Positions 1 through 9,822 of a stretch of DNA of 64,000 nucleotides are shown in pieces (positions within the stretch are counted from its first letter, which is position 1; each line of letters opens with the position of its first letter). The translations under genes were made by a program, and so were the position numbers. The notes beneath the pieces are model-generated. The model saw only the letters and a list, made by a program, of their open reading frames with translations, ran no database searches and was not told where the DNA came from. Location of the stretch: assembly GCA_041390245.1 (NCBI GenBank), contig JAWKQI010000006.1, positions 19,968-83,967 of the forward strand, read 5' to 3'. Source of the DNA: Eubacteriales bacterium (GTDB lineage: Bacteria; Bacillota; Clostridia; Christensenellales; JAWKQI01).

Positions 1-51
1 TGTAGTAATATAATTTCTGTAAGATCATTTTTTATAAACTATGGTGACAGA

Positions 52-951
52 ATGAATAAGTTTCCAGATTTAACTCGATGGTTTAATGTTACTACATATT
101 GCGATTTTAATGATTGTAGAAAAATAGAAATTAACATGAAAAGCGGCCTTACATATCAAGACATTAATTCTTTTTGTAATGAATTTGCAAAATACTTATG
201 CCGCATTCGTTGTCCTCAAAGTGCTCATCTCAATATAATGATAAAGTCTATTGATTCCGGTTGTGATATAGAGACAGAAGAAAAAGCATTTTGGAGAAAT
301 ATATTCTTTCGTGGTTTTATTAGTCAAGAAAAGTTCAACGGATATGGGGATTATACAAAATCGTTCGATGATGATGCAATTTTAGGGTACATAGGTGAAG
401 CATTATATTATGTTGTTCGTGCACAAATATTAGAAGATGAAAAAGTATGTATAGAACCATCAAGACCAAAATTTTATTCAAAGGATACGGGCATAGATTT
501 TTTGGAAATCAGGAAAGAAACTTCTGGCTATTATATGATTATTGGTGAAATTAAGGCTACAAAAAATACTATCAGTTCCCGGGCAAAGGAGATAATTGAA
601 TCATTTAAACTACGTGCTGATAAGAATTTTTCTGAGCTATGTGTAGCTTTACAAGATCGCCATATTCCTGTTGATAATCTAGAATTATCCGAATTTATTA
701 GTAATATGTGCGATCTTTTTTATCATATTGGACAAAAGCCCTCACTTCAAAAACGCTATGGTGGAATTATAAACTATAATTTCCGTGGACAAAAAATAAG
801 AGATTCTGCATTTCATGATTTCAAGGAACAATTAACTGGAAAAGTTGCAGATGAAAACTGTTGTAGGAGATTAGCTTTGGTTGGTATATATAATATTGAA
901 AATATTATTGATCAAGTGAGAGATACAATATGGAACAAAATAGTTACTTGA
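52..951 (+). CDS. hamA: HamA-like DUF1837 protein with putative D-ExK (PD-(D/E)xK-type) nuclease core; Hachiman effector candidate
   Basis: 299-aa ORF whose end overlaps the downstream helicase start by 22 nt. Motif series GYIGEAL (E116), GIDFLEI (D149), IIGEIKATKN (E166-x-K168) resembles the GE...GxD...GExK pattern of DUF1837/HamA. AT-rich coding sequence. Confidence 0.55.
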   Translation: MNKFPDLTRWFNVTTYCDFNDCRKIEINMKSGLTYQDINSFCNEFAKYLCRIRCPQSAHLNIMIKSIDSGCDIETEEKAFWRNIFFRGFISQEKFNGYGDYTKSFDDDAILGYIGEALYYVVRAQILEDEKVCIEPSRPKFYSKDTGIDFLEIRKETSGYYMIIGEIKATKNTISSRAKEIIESFKLRADKNFSELCVALQDRHIPVDNLELSEFISNMCDLFYHIGQKPSLQKRYGGIINYNFRGQKIRDSAFHDFKEQLTGKVADENCCRRLALVGIYNIENIIDQVRDTIWNKIVT

Positions 952-3900
952 ATACATTATTTAAAGACTTTACATCTCTTCTAGATAGTGAGAATGATTT
1001 TTCTATTATAGAAAATGCACTTCGAGAAATTCATTTTGAATTGATTAGAAGAGATTTATTTAATATTCCAAACAGAGAAAAGGAAATTATAGACGATTAT
1101 ACCGTACTAAGCAAAATAGGCTTTTATTTTATTACAAAAATTGCAGATAAAAAATCGAACTTATTTGCTAATACCGCTATCAAAAATCAAGCATTAGAAT
1201 TAGCGGGTTTTTGTTTTGAAATGCTAAGCAAGTCTTCAGCAATTAATGAAGCTTTACATTGGGAATATTCTTTATTATCTGGAATTAGTTATTCACTATC
1301 TGAGAAACAGGCTAATGCAATCGTTATGGCTAATAGCGCTCTTGGGCTTTATCATTCAGAAAATATCGCAATAAACTGTATGCTTTATTTTATTGCAAGG
1401 CGATTTAAAGATATTCGGAAAATGCACATCCCCACTCAGGCAGAAAAGGACGTTATTACAGTTTTAACAAGCATAAAACACTTTGCAGATTCAATGTTAT
1501 ATAGAAATTCCCGCAAAGATGAGATCGAGAAGCTTCGTGAAGCTTATGAACGTTTATATATGACGGGCTCTTCATTATTCTATTATTTACGTCTTATATA
1601 TCTTGTTGCTATAGAGATGGATAGAGGTGCAATTAGAAATTTATTATCAAGTCATCCCAACCTTGAGCCATATATAAGTGTTCTTACGCAGATTGATACT
1701 AAAAACGTTTACGAGTTGTGGGCATCACAGCTTTTTCTTCTTCATCCTGATAATTCATTGCTTTCAAACGATGACCGCATCCCCCTAGTGTCTATGCCAA
1801 CAAGTGCTGGAAAAACTTTAATTGCTGAGCTTGCAATATTTAATGTATTATCACAGAATAGTGGCTTGGCTATTTATGTTGTTCCCTCAATCGCTTTGAC
1901 TAATGAAATTGAAAATAATTTCTTTAAGCGTTTTCATAAGGTTGGAATTAAAGTGCGTAAAGAGATTCCAGACACAGAAGAAGTGGATACTGATACCTTA
2001 TTGGCAGAGTCTACCATCCTGGTCTTAACGCCTGAAAAACTCGACTTATTAATACGTAAAAGGCCTGTCTTAATGTCGACTATACAGATTATCGTATTTG
2101 ATGAATTTCACAAGGTATCTGCTAATGAACGTGGCTGGCTTTTAGAAACATTAATTGCGTGGTTTATACTATTTAAAGGAGAATACAAATATAAAGTTGT
2201 CCTAATGTCTGCTATTCTTAGTCACGTAAACAAGTGTATAGACAATTCACTTATTGATATTATTTATAGTGATTGGACTCCGACAAGAAAATTATATGGT
2301 CTATATTATTTGCCTATCAAATCTCAAATAATTTATGCAAAATCAAAGGTTAAAAAACAGTCCATAATTAAAGAGCCATATAATTTATGTTTAAGATATA
2401 ACTCAAAAAATAAAGACATTGCTCATATTTTTAATAAGGTTAGTTATGGCAAGAAAACGGTAGACGGAGTTGATGCAACCAAATCTGATACAAAATATGA
2501 TTTATGTTGGAGAGCCATTATTGGTTTATCTGAACGCCCTGTTTTAATCTATTTCTTTGCAAAGAAAGATATAAAGAGTTTCATCAAGCGAGCTCCCAAG
2601 TATTTATCGCCTGATAATAATGTAGAGCTGAATAATCTAATTACCACTGTTCAAAAACAATTAGGGAAAGATCATTTGCTATGCAAATATTTGAATTTTG
2701 GAATTGGCTTTCATACTGGCGATTTACCTGAGGATGTTAGAGCTTCAATTGAAAATGCATATAAAAATGGGGTTATAAAAATACTTGCGTGTACAACAAC
2801 TCTTGCCGATGGTATAAATTTACCTGTGAGCACATTTATAGTTGGATCGTACATGTCAAATAATAATTATATTAGCGATAGCGATTATAAGAACATTATT
2901 GGACGAATTGGCCGAGCATTAATTGATACGGAGGGAAAAATATTTTTAATTCGTCCACCAGAATGCTACACAGTTACCGATAAGAAGACTTTAAACAGAT
3001 TTGTTTTTCCGGAAAAAATTGAGACACCATTAAAAAGTACACTAGATAATATTTTGCCGTCGGACGTAGAGTCGATAATTAATTGTTTAGAAGATGCTGA
3101 ACTGGATGGGACTTTGACGATTCGGGAATTAGCTTTAAATGTTTTAGACCGTATACAAGTCTTCATTTTTTCTGTCTACGAAACTGCAGCAGATACTACA
3201 TTTGATGCGTTTTGGGAACAATACAAAAACTGTTTTTTTATTAATGTAAAAGAAACAGGTTCCTTATTTTTAACTGCCGCAGCACGAAAATATTTTTATT
3301 CTGCTGTAAGGATAAATGCAGAACTTCTTTCAAAATACAATAAGACAGGGCTATCATATCGGTCAAATCTAAAACTGTCAGACATCGCTACTAATATACC
3401 TGTAAGCTTTGATCTTGATGAGATTATATCTGAAGAAATATTTAACAATATAATCACCTGCAAGGAGTTTAAGCCCTCCATTGCAACCATAAACCACTTT
3501 GCAATATTCAAATCTTGGATTAGCGGAGAAGCATATTATTCAATTCGGGAAAAATATTTTGCAGAGTATAATAATGAGGATGCTACACAAAAATGCACGG
3601 CTTATATCAGAGAAATGTTCCAATATAAATTACCTTGGGCTTTTAGTTCTTTGCTTGTATTTTGCGGTAACTTCGTAAGCTCATTGATTGGTACATTACC
3701 GCAAGAAATTAAGTATGGTACGACTAATCTTAATGCAATAGAACTTTGTGTTGGTGGCATTAATTCCCGTGAGCTGTCTATTGCTATTGCTAATGCTTAT
3801 GACAATGATCTTGATAAAGAGGCCGGCGGTATAGAAGAATGGTTAGTAACATTACCGCAAGATAAATTGAAAACTATATTGGACAAATCCTTTGATTATA

Positions 3901-4259
3901 TTTCCCTAAGCCAGGTTTCAAAATATCGTTCCGTAAGAAGGACAAAGACTTTTGAAATAAAGAAAACCGGCTATCTGGATTGTAATATCGCAGGCTTATT
4001 TTATTATAAATTTCAAGACGCATACAATAATAATGCTCTTAATATTAGCTCCATTGTTCTCTTGGAACAAGACGTCAAAAACTCATATGATATCTACGCT
4101 GTAAAAGTATTTACAAGTGATCATCAATATCATCTGGGATATGTCCCAGCTCAATATTCAGAAGAAATATTCGATCTACTTGAAAGTGAAATGAATGTAT
4201 ACGCAGTTGTTCAATTCATCTCTGCATATAAACTATCCATAAAAATATTATGCAAATAG
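930..4259 (+). CDS. hamB: HamB-like superfamily-2 DExH helicase with C-terminal HIRAN-like domain
   Basis: 1109-aa ORF. Helicase motifs: MPTSAGKT (Walker A, nt 1794-1817), VFDEFH (motif II, nt 2100-2111), LACTTTLADGINLP, GRIGRA (motif VI, nt 2901-2918). Last ~90 aa (NIAGLFYYKF...VLLEQDVKNSYDIYAVKVF...HLGYVPAQYSEEIFDLLE) fit the HIRAN pattern. Confidence 0.7.
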   Translation: MEQNSYLNTLFKDFTSLLDSENDFSIIENALREIHFELIRRDLFNIPNREKEIIDDYTVLSKIGFYFITKIADKKSNLFANTAIKNQALELAGFCFEMLSKSSAINEALHWEYSLLSGISYSLSEKQANAIVMANSALGLYHSENIAINCMLYFIARRFKDIRKMHIPTQAEKDVITVLTSIKHFADSMLYRNSRKDEIEKLREAYERLYMTGSSLFYYLRLIYLVAIEMDRGAIRNLLSSHPNLEPYISVLTQIDTKNVYELWASQLFLLHPDNSLLSNDDRIPLVSMPTSAGKTLIAELAIFNVLSQNSGLAIYVVPSIALTNEIENNFFKRFHKVGIKVRKEIPDTEEVDTDTLLAESTILVLTPEKLDLLIRKRPVLMSTIQIIVFDEFHKVSANERGWLLETLIAWFILFKGEYKYKVVLMSAILSHVNKCIDNSLIDIIYSDWTPTRKLYGLYYLPIKSQIIYAKSKVKKQSIIKEPYNLCLRYNSKNKDIAHIFNKVSYGKKTVDGVDATKSDTKYDLCWRAIIGLSERPVLIYFFAKKDIKSFIKRAPKYLSPDNNVELNNLITTVQKQLGKDHLLCKYLNFGIGFHTGDLPEDVRASIENAYKNGVIKILACTTTLADGINLPVSTFIVGSYMSNNNYISDSDYKNIIGRIGRALIDTEGKIFLIRPPECYTVTDKKTLNRFVFPEKIETPLKSTLDNILPSDVESIINCLEDAELDGTLTIRELALNVLDRIQVFIFSVYETAADTTFDAFWEQYKNCFFINVKETGSLFLTAAARKYFYSAVRINAELLSKYNKTGLSYRSNLKLSDIATNIPVSFDLDEIISEEIFNNIITCKEFKPSIATINHFAIFKSWISGEAYYSIREKYFAEYNNEDATQKCTAYIREMFQYKLPWAFSSLLVFCGNFVSSLIGTLPQEIKYGTTNLNAIELCVGGINSRELSIAIANAYDNDLDKEAGGIEEWLVTLPQDKLKTILDKSFDYISLSQVSKYRSVRRTKTFEIKKTGYLDCNIAGLFYYKFQDAYNNNALNISSIVLLEQDVKNSYDIYAVKVFTSDHQYHLGYVPAQYSEEIFDLLESEMNVYAVVQFISAYKLSIKILCK

Positions 4260-4381
4260 TTTTCAAATGAAAAATGACACAACCCTAAGGATATAAAGTT
4301 GAATAGTAAGGTAATTTATAGTAAACTTAATCTATTAAGATAATTCGATATATGATTGTATAAACAGAGGCCTATATAGTA

Positions 4382-4831
4382 ATGGAAATTTCTATTCCCA
4401 CTGATGATGAAGGGTATGTTCTTCTAAAATGTTCTAAATGCGGGAGTTATTTTAAAATTACTCCAACCGATTACGAAGATAATAAATTGCTATTCATTTA
4501 TTGTCCAAGTTGTGGTTTAAGTAGCGATAATTATATTACAGAAGATGTTTTGGAATTGGCAATAGCTATGATTAAAAATGTTGAGGTGGAGTTAATTTAT
4601 AGTGAGATGAAAAAATGGGAAAGACAATTAAGCAATGAAATGGTGACATTTAAAGTAGGGCGAAAACCTAGCCAAGAACCAGAAAATCCTATTAGGTCTA
4701 GTATAGAAGCGTTAGTAATCAAACATTTTCGGTGTTGTAATCGAGATGCAAAAATAAAACCGATGTTGAAATTCACTGGTTGTTACTGCCCATTTTGCGG
4801 AGTGAAAGAATATGAAGTTGAATGTGATTGA
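4382..4831 (+). CDS. Hypothetical double zinc-ribbon protein (orphan, defence-islet associated)
   Basis: 149-aa ORF. Cysteines: C17-x2-C20 and C41-x2-C44 (N-terminal ribbon); C118-C119 and C134-x-C136-x2-C139 (C-terminal knuckles). Helical middle. Preceded by a 122-bp gap with a possible TTGAAT-17-TAAACT promoter (4299-4327). Confidence 0.6.
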   Translation: MEISIPTDDEGYVLLKCSKCGSYFKITPTDYEDNKLLFIYCPSCGLSSDNYITEDVLELAIAMIKNVEVELIYSEMKKWERQLSNEMVTFKVGRKPSQEPENPIRSSIEALVIKHFRCCNRDAKIKPMLKFTGCYCPFCGVKEYEVECD

Positions 4832-5600
4832 GCTTAAAAAAGTTATGTATGATTTTAACAGCATATCGAATCGCTTGATGCAGGCGAATTTCGCGGATTA
4901 TACTGATGTACTAATTAAATTTGTAGCCTATATTATAGGAAATGAACTGATACTTACATATATCACCGACTGTGGAAATATAGAGTTTGATGTAAAGGAA
5001 GAGTATCTAGAAGTCTCATCAAGTCGTGGAAATGCGATTTTTTCACTTGGAGAAAGTGATGCCGAAGAAGTCAGAAATGTTTATGCTATATTAAGCTATA
5101 TTGCAGACAACAAGAAGGAAATATATAATAACGTTGCAAAGGGGTATGCGAACTCGAATAAGTATCAAGATATGATTAAGGGATTCAATGATCGTTTTGT
5201 TATGGTATTGATTCGTCATATTGAACGATATTTAACCAAGATAGGAATTGATATGGGAATGGATGAAAGTGTAAGATACTCTATAACTGTATCAAACGGA
5301 CAAGTTAATATTGCTAACGACAACGCCACAATTAATGCCACAAACAATAGTGGAATTGATTCTGAACGCTTATCTCTGCTTATAAATGCCGTTAAAACAG
5401 AATTAAACAGCTTGTCCTCTGCTGACCAAGAATCAGCTTCAGATAGTTTAGCGGTTATTGAACAAGAATTGCAGACAGAAAAACCCCGTAAGAATTTTAT
5501 CAGAACAGCCCTCTCTGGATTGGAAATATTAAAAGGCTCAACTGAATTTGGTGCTGCTGTTGTCACACTAGTTACTTTTGTTCAACAAATTATCTCGTAA
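4812..5600 (+). CDS. Hypothetical protein, Asn-rich linker and C-terminal hydrophobic segment (orphan)
   Basis: 262-aa ORF. Its ATG overlaps the upstream gene end by 20 nt, with GGAG 9 nt upstream. No motif recognised. Contains NGQVNIANDNATINATNNSG, then a helical region, and ends in FGAAVVTLVTFVQQIIS. Confidence 0.55.
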   Translation: MKLNVIELKKVMYDFNSISNRLMQANFADYTDVLIKFVAYIIGNELILTYITDCGNIEFDVKEEYLEVSSSRGNAIFSLGESDAEEVRNVYAILSYIADNKKEIYNNVAKGYANSNKYQDMIKGFNDRFVMVLIRHIERYLTKIGIDMGMDESVRYSITVSNGQVNIANDNATINATNNSGIDSERLSLLINAVKTELNSLSSADQESASDSLAVIEQELQTEKPRKNFIRTALSGLEILKGSTEFGAAVVTLVTFVQQIIS

Positions 5601-5700
5601 AACCCCTCTTAATAGCATTTGAGGTGAAAAAAAGAGGATATCCTTTTCTGGAAAGCCCCTTATATATGTAACAGTTTCAACTCTTTTTTCTATAAGCTAG

Positions 5701-5877
5701 TCACCAATGACAGGTAGAATATCCTATGCTTAAAAATATAGGCTTGTCCTCTGCCTTGGCCTTTTTAAACGCTTCTTTACCCCAAGGATACCAGTTTACC
5801 GGATTATACGCATGCTGAAGAAGGTAAGGTGATTTCTCATCTATTAATTTATTTGGTGTTTTGTTATTACCAATCAT
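5701..5877 (-). pseudogene. Truncated N-terminal fragment of a DUF255/YyaL-type thioredoxin-domain protein
   Basis: Own translation of the - strand gives [58 protein letters not shown], then TGA. The family normally continues ...CHWCHVM... for about 600 more residues. The ORF is below the track length cutoff. Confidence 0.75.
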
Positions 5878-6099
5878 GGCGTCACCTGCTTGTATGTAGG
5901 ATTTTAATAATTTTAGTATTATCTTATCATAATTAAATAATGCAGTTTATAAATTTTAGATGGAATAAAGAAATAGATTATTTATTAGAAACTTTTAAAA
6001 TTAATAGCCTGTTTTCGTAAATTGTTCCAAATTAAGCAGATATTTATCCCTTTAGAAGAAAGCGTCACTGTGAACGTATGTAGCTCCATCCTTTTTCCA

Positions 6100-7344
6100 T
6101 TATATCGAATCATCCTCATTAAGCGCTAGCTTTGCAGCCGGAAACGGCTCCAGTGCACGTGGAAGAATCCCCATCACATATGCTATAAGCACTCCGTAAT
6201 TCGTTATGAAAACTCCCTGTTCACGTGCCTTTTCTACTCGGTACTGCATCTCTCTGCGCCCCAGCATACAGCCTCCGCAGTGGACTATTACAGCATACTC
6301 AGTTATATCCTTAGGATAGCAAGCTCCAGATGCCCATTCAAACTGTATGTCCCCGCCCGCAATCTGGCGTATCCAGCGCGGTATTTTAACTTTGCCGATA
6401 TCATCCGATTGCCGGTGATGCGTACATCCCTCTACAATCAATACCTTATCTCCCGGAGCCAGCCTTTCAATACGCCTTATCCCCCGCACCATTTCCGCAA
6501 GGTCTCCTTTTTGCCTCGCGAACAATATGGAAAAAGAAGTCATCGGGATACTGTCCGGTGTATCGGCTGCCACCTTTAAAAATGCCTGCGAATCTGTTAT
6601 GACCATAGCCGGCGGATCTTTAAGGCGCTCAATTGTCAGCTTTAATTCGTGTTCCTTCGTTACTATTGCCATCGCATCGCACTCTATTATGTCGCGGATC
6701 GTCTGCTGTTGTGGTAAAATAAGCCGGCCTTTAGGTGCAGCTTTGTCTATTGGCGTAACCAGCACTACCATATCCCCAGAATGAATTAAATCTCCTACTA
6801 ACGCAGGCTCTACATCCTCAAAATTCGAATTTGCTACAATCTGCTTTTTAGCCTCGCCGATACCAAACCCAGTCTGTGTGCTGACGCAGGCAACAGGTAT
6901 GCCAACCATTTGTTTAATCTTTTTGAGATCAGCCGCAGATGGAGCTTTACTGTCACATTTATTAAGTATTAAAATGCTATTAATCTTACGACGCCTAAGC
7001 TGCTCTATAAATTCTATTTCAAGTTTCGTAACACCCATATTCACGTCCACGACGACCAGAGCCAAGTTACATTTTCGCAGCACTTCATATGTCTTCTCTA
7101 TGCGCAGTTTACCAAGATCGCCAATATCATCCAGCCCCGCAGTATCAATAAATACTACCGGCCCAAGTGGTAAAAGTTCCATCGTTTTGTAAACCGGGTC
7201 TGTCGTCGTGCCTGCCACCTCAGATATAACTGCAATATCCTGCCCCGTAAGTGCATTTATAAGAGAGGATTTCCCGGCATTTCGCTTGCCGAAAAGCCCT
7301 ATCGCAAATCTATTCGCCATAGGCGTTGCATTCAAGTCTTGCAT
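6100..7344 (-). CDS. hydF: [FeFe]-hydrogenase H-cluster maturation GTPase HydF
   Basis: 414 aa. G1 motif GKRNAGKSS, then TTD and DTAG. C-terminal cluster motif EGCTHH...HCGGC. Lies in the operon with hydE and hydG. Confidence 0.92.
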   Translation of the reverse strand: MQDLNATPMANRFAIGLFGKRNAGKSSLINALTGQDIAVISEVAGTTTDPVYKTMELLPLGPVVFIDTAGLDDIGDLGKLRIEKTYEVLRKCNLALVVVDVNMGVTKLEIEFIEQLRRRKINSILILNKCDSKAPSAADLKKIKQMVGIPVACVSTQTGFGIGEAKKQIVANSNFEDVEPALVGDLIHSGDMVVLVTPIDKAAPKGRLILPQQQTIRDIIECDAMAIVTKEHELKLTIERLKDPPAMVITDSQAFLKVAADTPDSIPMTSFSILFARQKGDLAEMVRGIRRIERLAPGDKVLIVEGCTHHRQSDDIGKVKIPRWIRQIAGGDIQFEWASGACYPKDITEYAVIVHCGGCMLGRREMQYRVEKAREQGVFITNYGVLIAYVMGILPRALEPFPAAKLALNEDDSI

Positions 7345-7345
7345 C

Positions 7346-8740
7346 TTATTTCTCCTTAAATCTGTCAGGCGATGTCAGCCTTTCAGGCCTGAATATTTCG
7401 TCTAGAGTCTTTTCATCCATTAGTTGTTTCTTAAGCACCACTTCACGTACTGTACGGCCCGTTTTTTGACATATAGCCGCCACTTCCGCCGCTTTATCGT
7501 AGCCAATATATCCTGTCAACGCCGTTGCGAGTATATAGCTACCGTATACTTTACCCGTACACTGCTTGATGTTGGCTTCAATACCACTAATACACCTTTC
7601 AATGAACAAAGGCAGCATATTTAATAGCAAATCTAACATTTCCAGCAAATTTTTAGCAATAAGCGGCATAAACGCATTAAGTTCAAGTTGCCCGGCCTGT
7701 GCTGAAAGCGTTACCGCCATATCATCTGCCATTATCTGAAACGCGACCTGGTTCATGGCTTCGCAGATTACTGGGTTGACCTTCCCGGGCATTATAGATG
7801 AGCCAGCCTGTACTGCCGGTAGCTTGATTTCGCCAATGCCAGCAAGTGGCCCTGATGATAACAACCGCAGATCATTTGCAATCTTGTTTAAACTCACTGC
7901 CGCTGCCTTTAATAGACCTGATACCTCGACGAATACATCGCAGTTCTGCGTTGGGTCTATCATAAATTCAGCGCGTGCAAGGCCTATGCCAGTCAGCCTT
8001 CTTAAACGCTCTATCATAGTAAAAATATATTCCTTTGGTGCATTTAGCCCTGTGCCAACAGCAGTGCCGCCGATACCCACCTGGCGGAGCCTCTCCTCAG
8101 CTTTATATAGCCTCCACCTGTCCCGTGCAATCGCCTGAGCCCATGCACCGAACTCCTGCCCAAGAGTCACCGGAACTGCGTCTTGCATCTCCGTCCTGCC
8201 GACTTTGACGACCGTCGAAAACTCCTCTTCCTTCTCCTGCAGCGCTGTCTGCAGCATTGCAAACTGTTCGGTCACTGGCTTTAAGAGTCGTATCGCTGCG
8301 ATACGCACTGCCGTTGGGAATACATCGTTAGTAGACTGGTGCATATTAACGTGGTCCAGCGGATGTACGATAGAATAATCGCCTTTTTTCCCCCCAAGCT
8401 TCTCTATTGCACGGTTTGCAATAACCTCATTTACGTTCATATTGGCAGATGTTCCTGCCCCGCCCTGCATAGAATCTACTACAAACTGGTCTGATAGCTC
8501 CCCTGCAAGTATCTCATCGCATGATGTAATAATAGCATCAGCAATCTCTTTATTTAACGCCCCAATATCACGGTTGGTAATAGCTGCTGCCTTCTTAACG
8601 GTCACCAGCGCACTTACTAATTCGGCGTGAATAGGTGTCCCAGTAATATTAAAATTTTTTATAGCACGCTCCGTATGGATACCGTAATAAGCATCGTCTT
8701 CAATTGAAAGCGTACCAAGCATATCATGTTCAGTTCTCAT
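7346..8740 (-). CDS. aspA: Aspartate ammonia-lyase (fumarate-lyase superfamily) embedded in the hyd maturase operon
   Basis: 464 aa. Signature QAGSSIMPGKVNPV. Aspartase-like N-terminus DMLGTLSIEDDAYYGIHTERAIKNFNITG. 4-nt overlap with hydE and a 1-nt gap to hydF. Confidence 0.8.
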   Translation of the reverse strand: MRTEHDMLGTLSIEDDAYYGIHTERAIKNFNITGTPIHAELVSALVTVKKAAAITNRDIGALNKEIADAIITSCDEILAGELSDQFVVDSMQGGAGTSANMNVNEVIANRAIEKLGGKKGDYSIVHPLDHVNMHQSTNDVFPTAVRIAAIRLLKPVTEQFAMLQTALQEKEEEFSTVVKVGRTEMQDAVPVTLGQEFGAWAQAIARDRWRLYKAEERLRQVGIGGTAVGTGLNAPKEYIFTMIERLRRLTGIGLARAEFMIDPTQNCDVFVEVSGLLKAAAVSLNKIANDLRLLSSGPLAGIGEIKLPAVQAGSSIMPGKVNPVICEAMNQVAFQIMADDMAVTLSAQAGQLELNAFMPLIAKNLLEMLDLLLNMLPLFIERCISGIEANIKQCTGKVYGSYILATALTGYIGYDKAAEVAAICQKTGRTVREVVLKKQLMDEKTLDEIFRPERLTSPDRFKEK

Positions 8741-9822
8741 CGTTGCGTACCTCTTTTCTGTAAATCGATATGATCTCCTCGGGAAAAATCCGGTATAAAC
8801 CCGGCCGACTTAATTCTGCGTGAAAGGCAGGCAAGGCACTCTGCCGCCTCCTCTCCGGTACAGATCTTATTGTCGTATATGGCATAGTCCTTACGATGTG
8901 CCAAAGGAGAAAGATTGGGCATAACTACGTTCGCACCTGCCTTCATCCCTTTTTCACGCCCCAACGGGTCTACGGTGCCTAACGCGGTTGTAACCGGCAG
9001 CAATACCTTAGGCAGCATAATCCTAATCAGCGGAAGCATCTTAAGCGTATTACTGCTGTTTGGCTTGCAAAACCCGGCAAACCTCGTATCCTTATGTGGT
9101 ATAAACGGCCCGATACCTATCATATGCGGCTGTAAACCTCTTAAAAAAATCAGATCCTCCGCCAGCGTTTCATACGTCTGGAAAGGTGAATCCACCATAA
9201 ATCCGGCCCCAACCTGATACCCTATTTCCTTTAAATCATAAAGGCAGCGCTTACGGTTTTCAAGGCTTAACTCCGGAGGATGAAGCCTTGAGTAGTGCTG
9301 TTTGTCTGCCGTTTCATGGCGTAGCAGATATCTATCTGTACCCGCTTCAAACAAACGTTTATAAGAATCTTTGCTGCGTTCCCCAATAGAAAGCGTAACC
9401 GCACAATCCGGGTAATTCGCCTTGATTCGTGATATTATCTGGCACATACGCTCATCTGTAAAATATGGGTCCTCACCGCTTTGCAGCACAAAAGTGCGAA
9501 ACCCTAACGCGTAGCCATCTCTGCAGCTTTTAAGCACCTCATCTTCTGAAAGCCTGTATCTTGCGGCATCTGTATTACTCCTGCCAAGGCCGCAATAATA
9601 GCAGTCGTTTTTGCAGTAGCTTGAAAATTCTATCAGGCCTCGAAGATATACCTTCCTGCCATAATATATTTCCCTAATATCGTTCGCAAAACAACAAATC
9701 GCTGATAATTCCTCTGTCCCGGCTTCTTTATAAAAAAACCGAATCATTTTTGCAAGCTCTGCTTTTGTAGCAGCGTTCATCCACGCTGAAAAGCTATCTT
9801 TATTATCTAGCTTAAAATCCAT
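8737..9822 (-). CDS. hydE: [FeFe]-hydrogenase radical-SAM maturase HydE
   Basis: 361 aa. Radical-SAM motif CKNDCYYCG. Size and operon context match HydE. Confidence 0.88.
   Translation of the reverse strand: MDFKLDNKDSFSAWMNAATKAELAKMIRFFYKEAGTEELSAICCFANDIREIYYGRKVYLRGLIEFSSYCKNDCYYCGLGRSNTDAARYRLSEDEVLKSCRDGYALGFRTFVLQSGEDPYFTDERMCQIISRIKANYPDCAVTLSIGERSKDSYKRLFEAGTDRYLLRHETADKQHYSRLHPPELSLENRKRCLYDLKEIGYQVGAGFMVDSPFQTYETLAEDLIFLRGLQPHMIGIGPFIPHKDTRFAGFCKPNSSNTLKMLPLIRIMLPKVLLPVTTALGTVDPLGREKGMKAGANVVMPNLSPLAHRKDYAIYDNKICTGEEAAECLACLSRRIKSAGFIPDFSRGDHIDLQKRGTQR

Follow-up and report, generated by a model that had tools for sequence, protein, structure and literature searches.

RESULTS AND DISCUSSION

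A new copy of the candidate defense cassette PDC-M14

The window analyzed here is a 64,000-nucleotide (nt) stretch of contig JAWKQI010000006.1 (positions 19,968 to 83,967; assembly GCA_041390245.1) from an Eubacteriales bacterium. Near its left end it carries two overlapping genes (positions 4382 to 5600) that, by full-length profile matches, are a new copy of PDC-M14, an already catalogued candidate phage defense family. The genomic context of the family makes it reasonably probable that this cassette is an anti-phage or anti-mobile-element defense module that lodges in defense loci as an extra layer. The best reading of the comparative evidence is that the cassette is self-contained, horizontally mobile, and probably nonenzymatic.

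Gene A (PDC-M14A; 4382 to 4831, plus strand) encodes an acidic protein of 149 amino acids (aa) with a dual zinc ribbon, and gene B (PDC-M14B; 4812 to 5600, plus strand) encodes an acidic, helical protein of 262 aa. Protein A matched the PADLOC model PDC-M14A (PDLC04447) with an E value of 3e-52 and 175 bits (residues 1 to 142 on profile positions 6 to 150 of 152), while protein B matched PDC-M14B (PDLC04451) with an E value of 1e-110 and 367.6 bits (residues 1 to 260 on profile positions 1 to 260 of 261) as well as five further PDC-M14B models. The pair also has the PDC-M14 architecture, with the genes adjacent, on the same strand, and in the order A>>B. A first-pass annotation made from the sequence alone had described the pair as an orphan, undescribed module with no recognized family for either protein, a description that these matches overturn. 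The window copy thus shares its full-length matches, gene order, and strand with the family; it differs in lying beside a Hachiman system rather than being embedded in a defense operon and in having an overlap of 20 nt rather than 14 nt between the two genes.

PDC-M14 was listed as one of 145 untested phage defense candidates obtained via guilt-by-embedding (Payne et al., bioRxiv 10.1101/2024.01.29.577857), where it is cassette CAS_00078 (FAM_02625>>FAM_00494; Count 247) and where the candidate call was based on embedding in a BREX, DISARM, or type I restriction-modification (RM) system. It is not among the systems tested in defense screens of Streptococcus and Lactococcus, both of which used PADLOC. 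A large protein collection held at least 641 homologs of B and at least 555 of A, and a profile search placed at least 906 representatives at 50% identity in the B family, nearly all of them ~260 aa long. To the catalogue entry we add a 14-nt coupling junction, natural A-B fusions, the lack of fold relatives for B, a nonenzymatic conservation pattern, the range of mobile-element carriers, and the exclusion of a link to Hachiman.

Strict pairing, translational coupling, and natural fusions

We compiled 53 PDC-M14 loci from species-representative genomes, all within the subfamily nearest the window copy. An A homolog lay directly upstream of B in every one of them (53/53), including one locus that was split by an insertion and one that was degraded. 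The first-pass annotation had proposed a self-contained two-gene module, and this strict adjacency bears that proposal out. Pairing was also kept in plasmid relatives from Clostridium estertheticum, Lysinibacillus, and Bacillus cereus, in which B was only 24 to 39% identical (tblastn) and all eight ribbon cysteines of A were retained. At locus L051 (670 to 4010), the B gene is split by an insertion of ~3.3 kb that carries open reading frames (ORFs) of 517 and 417 aa.

The junction between the two genes (4799 to 4831, plus strand) has a Shine-Dalgarno (SD) sequence for B, GGAG, at 4799 to 4802, the ATG of B at 4812, and the TGA of A at 4829 to 4831, and the 20-nt overlap of the two ORFs that was reported earlier is present as described. 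Among related loci, 51 of 52 had ATGAARTTGAATAG, an overlap of exactly 14 nt between the stop of A and the start of B; the longer overlap in the window arose because the TAG of A became TGT, so that A extends by two codons. Since an SD-like motif for B lay inside the 3' end of A in all 52 loci, the junction supports translational coupling of the two genes.

The two proteins also occur as one polypeptide. Four full-length in-frame A-B fusions of 404 to 417 aa (P0264, P0303, P0311, and P0327) were recovered from divergent lineages, together with a truncated fifth (P0313), and protein A aligned to the N termini of P0264 (45% identity; E = 3e-47) and P0327 (33% identity; E = 8e-20). The fusion proteins are only 31 to 33% identical to one another, which indicates that the fused state is real and maintained. 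Translational coupling and these Rosetta-stone fusions together argue that A and B would act as a single physical unit.

Residence in defense operons and on mobile elements

Neighboring genes of the 53 loci were clustered and then annotated by Pfam and PADLOC, with context taken as four genes. BREX genes were present in 18 loci, in the arrangement BrxB-BrxC-PglX-[A-B]-(Schlafen-type gene)-PglZ-BrxL, and type I RM genes in 13 loci, as HsdM-HsdS-[A-B]-HsdR. Two further loci, and six metagenomic places, had the pair on an integrative mobilizable element, where it comes after genes for an EcoRI-type methylase and a GmrSD_N/HNH enzyme. The association with defense loci from which the first-pass annotation had argued was strong, as 33 of 53 loci had genes of BREX, type I RM, or GmrSD systems no more than four genes from the pair. 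The remaining 20 loci had other contexts, with neighbors that include bSEFIR/TIR, type III RM, DRT, GajB, AbiLi, AAA_21, and Schlafen genes. The embedding in BREX and type I RM systems on which the candidate call was based is thus reproduced independently for the family; the window copy itself is not embedded.

Of 50 loci, 48 had an upstream gene in the same direction as the pair and 26 an upstream gap of no more than 60 nt, so the pair is probably co-transcribed, as a rule, with the flanking defense operon. The gene immediately downstream of B in ~16 loci, many of them BREX and some non-BREX, is of the Schlafen(AlbA_2)-HATPase_c_4 type (for example, L025, 10827 to 12341). A 2026 survey of BREX loci (PMC12839542) described Schlafen-HisK-wHTH RNases as embedded BREX "backup effectors"; the survey describes the Schlafen neighbor and not the A-B pair.

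Several carriers are mobile. The mobilizable element, whose insertion site is a TRAM/tRNA-U5-methyltransferase gene, encodes a serine recombinase together with Mob_Pre and DUF5906. Members of this one element family carry alternative cargos, either the EcoRI-type methylase and GmrSD/HNH genes with PDC-M14 (L004, L006, and L054 to L059) or a type I RM system with PDC-M14 embedded in it (L007 to L009). The closest relative of protein B (79% identity) is encoded within a conjugative element, between a coupling-protein gene and VirB4-like genes, and a Petrotogaceae copy lies in an island of helix-turn-helix (HTH), DUF4325, and ImmA-type genes. No B homolog was found in sequenced phages (0 of 50,697 phage genomes).

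Two cases of near-identical copies were seen along the way. The chromosome of Mediterraneibacter glycyrrhizinilyticus f23 holds a 20.8-kb BREX segment with PDC-M14 twice, at 100% identity (L016 and L017), a sign either that the segment was recently duplicated or that a large mobile element is repeated. A Candidatus Stercorousia metagenome-assembled genome (MAG; L007) and Clostridium oryzae (L009) share a type I RM and PDC-M14 element at 97% nucleotide identity over ~14 kb; sharing across such distant taxa reflects either recent cross-phylum transfer or MAG contamination.

Protein A, a cysteine-rich candidate adaptor

Protein A has ten cysteines, with C17, C20, C41, and C44 predicted to form ribbon 1 and C118, C119, C136, and C139 a second zinc site. 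The first-pass annotation had counted four CxxC-type knuckles in two ribbons around a helical spacer. The two ribbons and the spacer stand, while the motifs are three CxxC and one CC (C17xxC20, C41xxC44, C118C119, and C134xC136xxC139). All eight ribbon cysteines are invariant, distant relatives included; C134 is not conserved in distant relatives. Between the two zinc sites lie a predicted helix (~54 to 82) and then a conserved linker, EPENPIRSGIEAL. Searches of Pfam, NCBIfam, and PHROGs gave only generic zinc-ribbon matches, all below threshold. Matches to the restriction-alleviation models of Lar likewise fell below the cutoffs (PF14354, 16.3 bits against 28.6, E = 0.012; TIGR03655, 12 bits against 39.6). 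"Symfoil" matches of A in a sequence-profile search of the PDB were discarded as an artifact, being the sum of three individually insignificant repeat segments.

Both proteins of the pair are acidic across the family, with a median pI of about 5; protein A has a pI of 5.1 in the window and a family median of 5.2. Its acidity and its many cysteines make A resemble an adaptor for proteins or ligands more closely than a repressor that binds DNA.

Protein B, a helical protein with a hydrophobic conservation pattern

The AlphaFold2 (AF2) model of protein B is confident, with a predicted local distance difference test (pLDDT) score of 85.5. It consists of a predicted all-helical N-terminal domain (aa 1 to 148; nt 4812 to 5255), a predicted beta-hairpin (aa 156 to 169), and a predicted C-terminal domain of four helices (aa 184 to 262; nt 5361 to 5597), the last of which is amphipathic and hydrophobic. 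The hairpin and the motif GQVNIAxDNATINA together span aa 156 to 183 (nt 5277 to 5360), within which aa 171 to 181 form a short stretch of low model confidence. The N-terminal domain had been put at ~165 aa; in the model its helical part ends at residue 148. The Asn-rich segment that had been taken for a low-complexity linker is instead this strongly conserved motif, one of the best-conserved parts of B. The terminal stretch is hydrophobic, as had been noted, but borderline for a membrane helix; the last helix (EFxAAVxALIQFxQ) had a best 19-residue Kyte-Doolittle mean of 0.9 to 1.7 across 20 homologs and is amphipathic, with a high hydrophobic moment and conserved Q/E residues.

Protein B matched no family in Pfam (2025), NCBIfam (June 2026), or PHROGs. 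A Pfam scan of 78 diverse members of the B family gave no recurrent weak match, and zinc-ribbon matches came only from the fusion proteins. Foldseek searches with the model found no fold relatives in the PDB (best E = 0.22) or BFVD (best E = 0.27), with template-modeling (TM) scores below 0.3, and a search against PDB sequence profiles found nothing among solved structures. A reading of the "RH" helix as HEPN-like was rejected, as the spacing is not Rx4-6H, H136 is less than 70% conserved, and a HEPN fold match is absent.

Among 78 representatives, the best-conserved positions of B were F15, Y91, L94, Y112, F125, I137, and P225, which are aromatic or aliphatic, and no polar residue was conserved at 90% or more, Asp, Glu, His, Lys, and Arg included (H136 was below 70%). 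With conserved positions that are hydrophobic and no charged residue or histidine at 90%, the pattern favors a binding, structural, or pore-type protein rather than an enzyme.

A possible mechanism and its place among known systems

The reading of PDC-M14 as a defense module draws on family membership, obligate pairing, fusions, residence in defense loci and on mobile elements, absence from phages, and prior curation. In the window, the cassette would have landed beside Hachiman within one acquired low-GC islet. One scheme can be sketched for how such a module might work. Protein A would be made in coupled, roughly 1:1 amounts with B, and the two would form a 1:1 complex in which the helical N-terminal domain of B docks A. 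Protein A could then serve both as a lock on B and as a sensor, probably binding a protein or nucleic acid cue, and B would be a nonenzymatic effector. A trigger would free the C-terminal four-helix bundle of B with its amphipathic, hydrophobic last helix, and the released bundle might harm the cell envelope or stop a process that is essential or belongs to the phage, ending the infection by abortive-infection logic. Taken as one model, this combination of a sensor and lock with a nonenzymatic effector is doubtful and is offered tentatively from the sequences and predicted structure. A narrower version, in which PDC-M14 is a new nonenzymatic class of abortive infection with a fold not seen before, strikes us as a quite unlikely, speculative extension. 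In it, A would stand guard over the flanking methylation-based or helicase-based immunity and, on sensing that a phage interferes with it (for example, by anti-restriction proteins), would release B, the C-terminal helical bundle of which would insert into the membrane or perturb it.

Modules embedded in BREX and type I RM operons include the BrxU/GmrSD type IV enzymes and PrrC. PDC-M14 occupies the same niche as these and the Schlafen-HisK-wHTH RNases, between PglX and PglZ or between HsdS and HsdR, and like them is modular and found with different host systems. Those modules carry recognizable nuclease or RNase domains, whereas PDC-M14B has no recognizable enzymatic domain, lacks conserved residues of a catalytic type, and is without fold relatives. 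In CapRel-type toxin-antitoxin defense proteins, a sensor or antitoxin domain auto-inhibits the effector, to which it is fused or coupled. PDC-M14 likewise has two parts, which occur either as coupled genes or fused in a single polypeptide, and, by analogy, may pair a small sensor-like partner with a larger effector-like one; it has no sequence or structural likeness to any known toxin or antitoxin.

Several points weigh against a defense role or against the proposed mechanism. The context counts describe only the subfamily nearest the window copy, and they are not independent, since many loci share 70 to 100% identical flanks; many of the BREX loci may represent one co-inherited lineage. We estimate that there are about six to eight independent contexts, most of them defense related. 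Some copies lie in the backbones of conjugative elements or plasmids with no obvious defense neighbors, and a literature search found no paper naming PDC-M14 and no experiment on it. On the structural side, the AF2 model of protein A is poor (pLDDT of 60). For protein B, AF2 places the terminal helix within a soluble four-helix bundle, and the borderline hydrophobicity of the tail and its conserved Q/E residues make the idea of a membrane effector weak. The low conservation of polar residues in B could also be due in part to alignment noise from fragments and fusions.

If PDC-M14 is a working defense system, the known immune repertoire of Clostridia and other Firmicutes, many gut species included, would grow by a widespread module. 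With no recognizable enzyme domain and no structural relatives, its effector would probably work by a new mechanism. The strict pairing, fusions, coupling junction, hairpin and Asn-rich motif, and hydrophobic conservation make PDC-M14 a well-defined experimental target.

Alternative functions

The cassette might instead be a toxin-antitoxin (TA)-like addiction module, with B as toxin and A as antitoxin, that stabilizes host elements or islands and has no dedicated anti-phage role. This account would fit the small, translationally coupled two-gene operon, its carriage by plasmids, a conjugative element, and integrative mobilizable elements, and its absence from the phage genomes searched. Neither protein, however, matched toxin or antitoxin families in Pfam, NCBIfam, or PADLOC, and the features of a type II TA system were not found: A is a zinc ribbon, acidic (median pI of 5.2) and without the usual DNA-binding folds of antitoxins, and B had no fold match in the PDB or BFVD. 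In-frame fusions kept at 31 to 33% identity are ill suited to the combination of a labile antitoxin with a stable toxin, and most copies lie within chromosomal defense operons rather than in the maintenance regions of elements. We therefore consider a pure addiction role unlikely, while noting that TA and defense roles are not mutually exclusive.

A second possibility is that the pair serves the methylation-based systems BREX and type I RM, as an accessory or as a regulator, and is not a defense in its own right. It could act, for example, in establishment control or in restriction alleviation when a system enters a new host. The placement of 31 of 53 loci within such operons, with gaps of 7 to 40 nt to the flanking core genes, points in this direction, as does the weak, subthreshold match of ribbon 1 of A to Lar (PF14354, E = 0.012). 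That likeness is no better than the likeness to TFIIB, CSL, and DUF7836 zinc ribbons, and most BREX and type I RM systems do without the pair. Copies without RM or BREX genes in the vicinity are known, moreover, from the window, the conjugative element, the Petrotogaceae island, and the plasmids. A dedicated regulatory role is distinctly unlikely on this evidence.

Carriage of the closest B relative (79% identity) inside a conjugative element, and of other copies on mobilizable elements, might also suggest genes that act for the element, either against host defenses or in transfer or entry exclusion. We regard this as very improbable, as BREX and type I RM operons, where the pair is embedded co-directionally and at short gaps, are not where an anti-defense gene would be expected, and the pair was not found in phages and has no likeness to known anti-restriction families. 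Sigma-70 genes nearby in three mobile-element contexts prompted the idea of an anti-sigma factor, which was set aside because the BREX, type I RM, and window contexts lack sigma genes.

The neighboring Hachiman system

The immediate neighbor of PDC-M14 in the same islet is a type I Hachiman system (52 to 4259, plus strand), consisting of HamA (DUF1837 nuclease; 52 to 951; 299 aa) and HamB (helicase; 930 to 4259; 1,109 aa). HamB matched the PADLOC model HamB1 (E = 1.6e-68) and has Pfam DEAD, Helicase_C, and C-terminal HIRAN domains. HamA had no match to the Pfam or PADLOC HamA models, and its relatives at 41 to 50% identity carry PF08878; the HamB match and the presence of PF08878 in HamA relatives indicate that the system is real. 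A peptide-pattern search of reference genomes found no close HamA relatives, whereas a protein search did find relatives. On the source contig HamA was called with 322 aa, and its true start may precede position 1 of the window.

The first-pass suggestion that the pair supplies extra components of this Hachiman system finds backing in their common strand and low-GC islet and in a separation of 122 nt between HamB and the pair downstream. It is nonetheless extremely improbable, as HamA or HamB homologs were found within ±10 kb in 0 of 53 PDC-M14 loci and no A or B homolog was found in the flanks of the closest Hachiman relatives (HamA 82% and HamB 73% identical; HamA 51% and HamB 48% identical). 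This lack of co-occurrence in both directions indicates that Hachiman and PDC-M14 are separate systems that share one acquired islet, and the window islet would accordingly carry two systems and not one enlarged Hachiman.

The HIRAN domain of HamB lies at aa 1014 to 1099 (approximately nt 3969 to 4226; Pfam E = 4.8e-10), and HamB relatives at 73% and 48% identity share this C-terminal architecture. HIRAN domains in other proteins bind DNA 3' ends, and by analogy the domain may bear on DNA sensing by this Hachiman subtype. Among relatives of the window Hachiman system (L150 to L154 and L155), the closest adjoin two tandem serine recombinases (DUF4368) and phage packaging-like genes. A 51% relative follows immediately on genes for thymidylate kinase, radical SAM, and uracil-DNA glycosylase (UDG) in a RepA_N/ParB/ArdC element. 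This Hachiman subtype is therefore also carried on mobile elements.

The low-GC islet and its surroundings

The AT-rich islet described in the first-pass annotation was confirmed, with a GC content of 0.28 to 0.36 over positions 1 to 6000 and 0.43 to 0.52 beyond. The 122-nt gap between the end of the helicase gene (4259) and gene A also stood, and this intergenic region (4260 to 4381, plus strand) contains an SD-like motif, AGAGG, at 4366 to 4370. The plausible promoter that had been placed there did not hold up, as 12 promoter-like sites were found against 11.0 expected; a promoter in this region is possible, with the scan at chance level. In a search for a terminator signal, the region 3' of the pair folded no better than shuffled sequence (z = 0.77).

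The truncation junction beyond the pair is real. The minus-strand ORF at 5701 to 5877, at the right edge of the islet, encodes a 58-aa N-terminal piece of a DUF255/Thioredox_DsbH protein (PF03190; E = 2e-25; profile positions 2 to 51 of 163 in a Pfam scan). Its last residues are STCHW, and the islet is therefore taken to cut into a host gene at its right edge. An empty site for the islet was sought and not found, as DUF255 was not adjacent to hydF in 80 related genomes. The sole other contig with the window locus begins within HamA.

Beside the islet, core genes on the minus strand (6100 to 9822) encode HydF (6100 to 7344), an aspartase/fumarase-like lyase (7346 to 8740), and a HydE-like radical SAM protein (8737 to 9822). 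These genes form an [FeFe]-hydrogenase maturation cluster, which fits an anaerobic Clostridia host. The window HydF is at most 81% identical to any HydF in the reference genomes, and the host is an uncultured bacterium of the class Clostridia.

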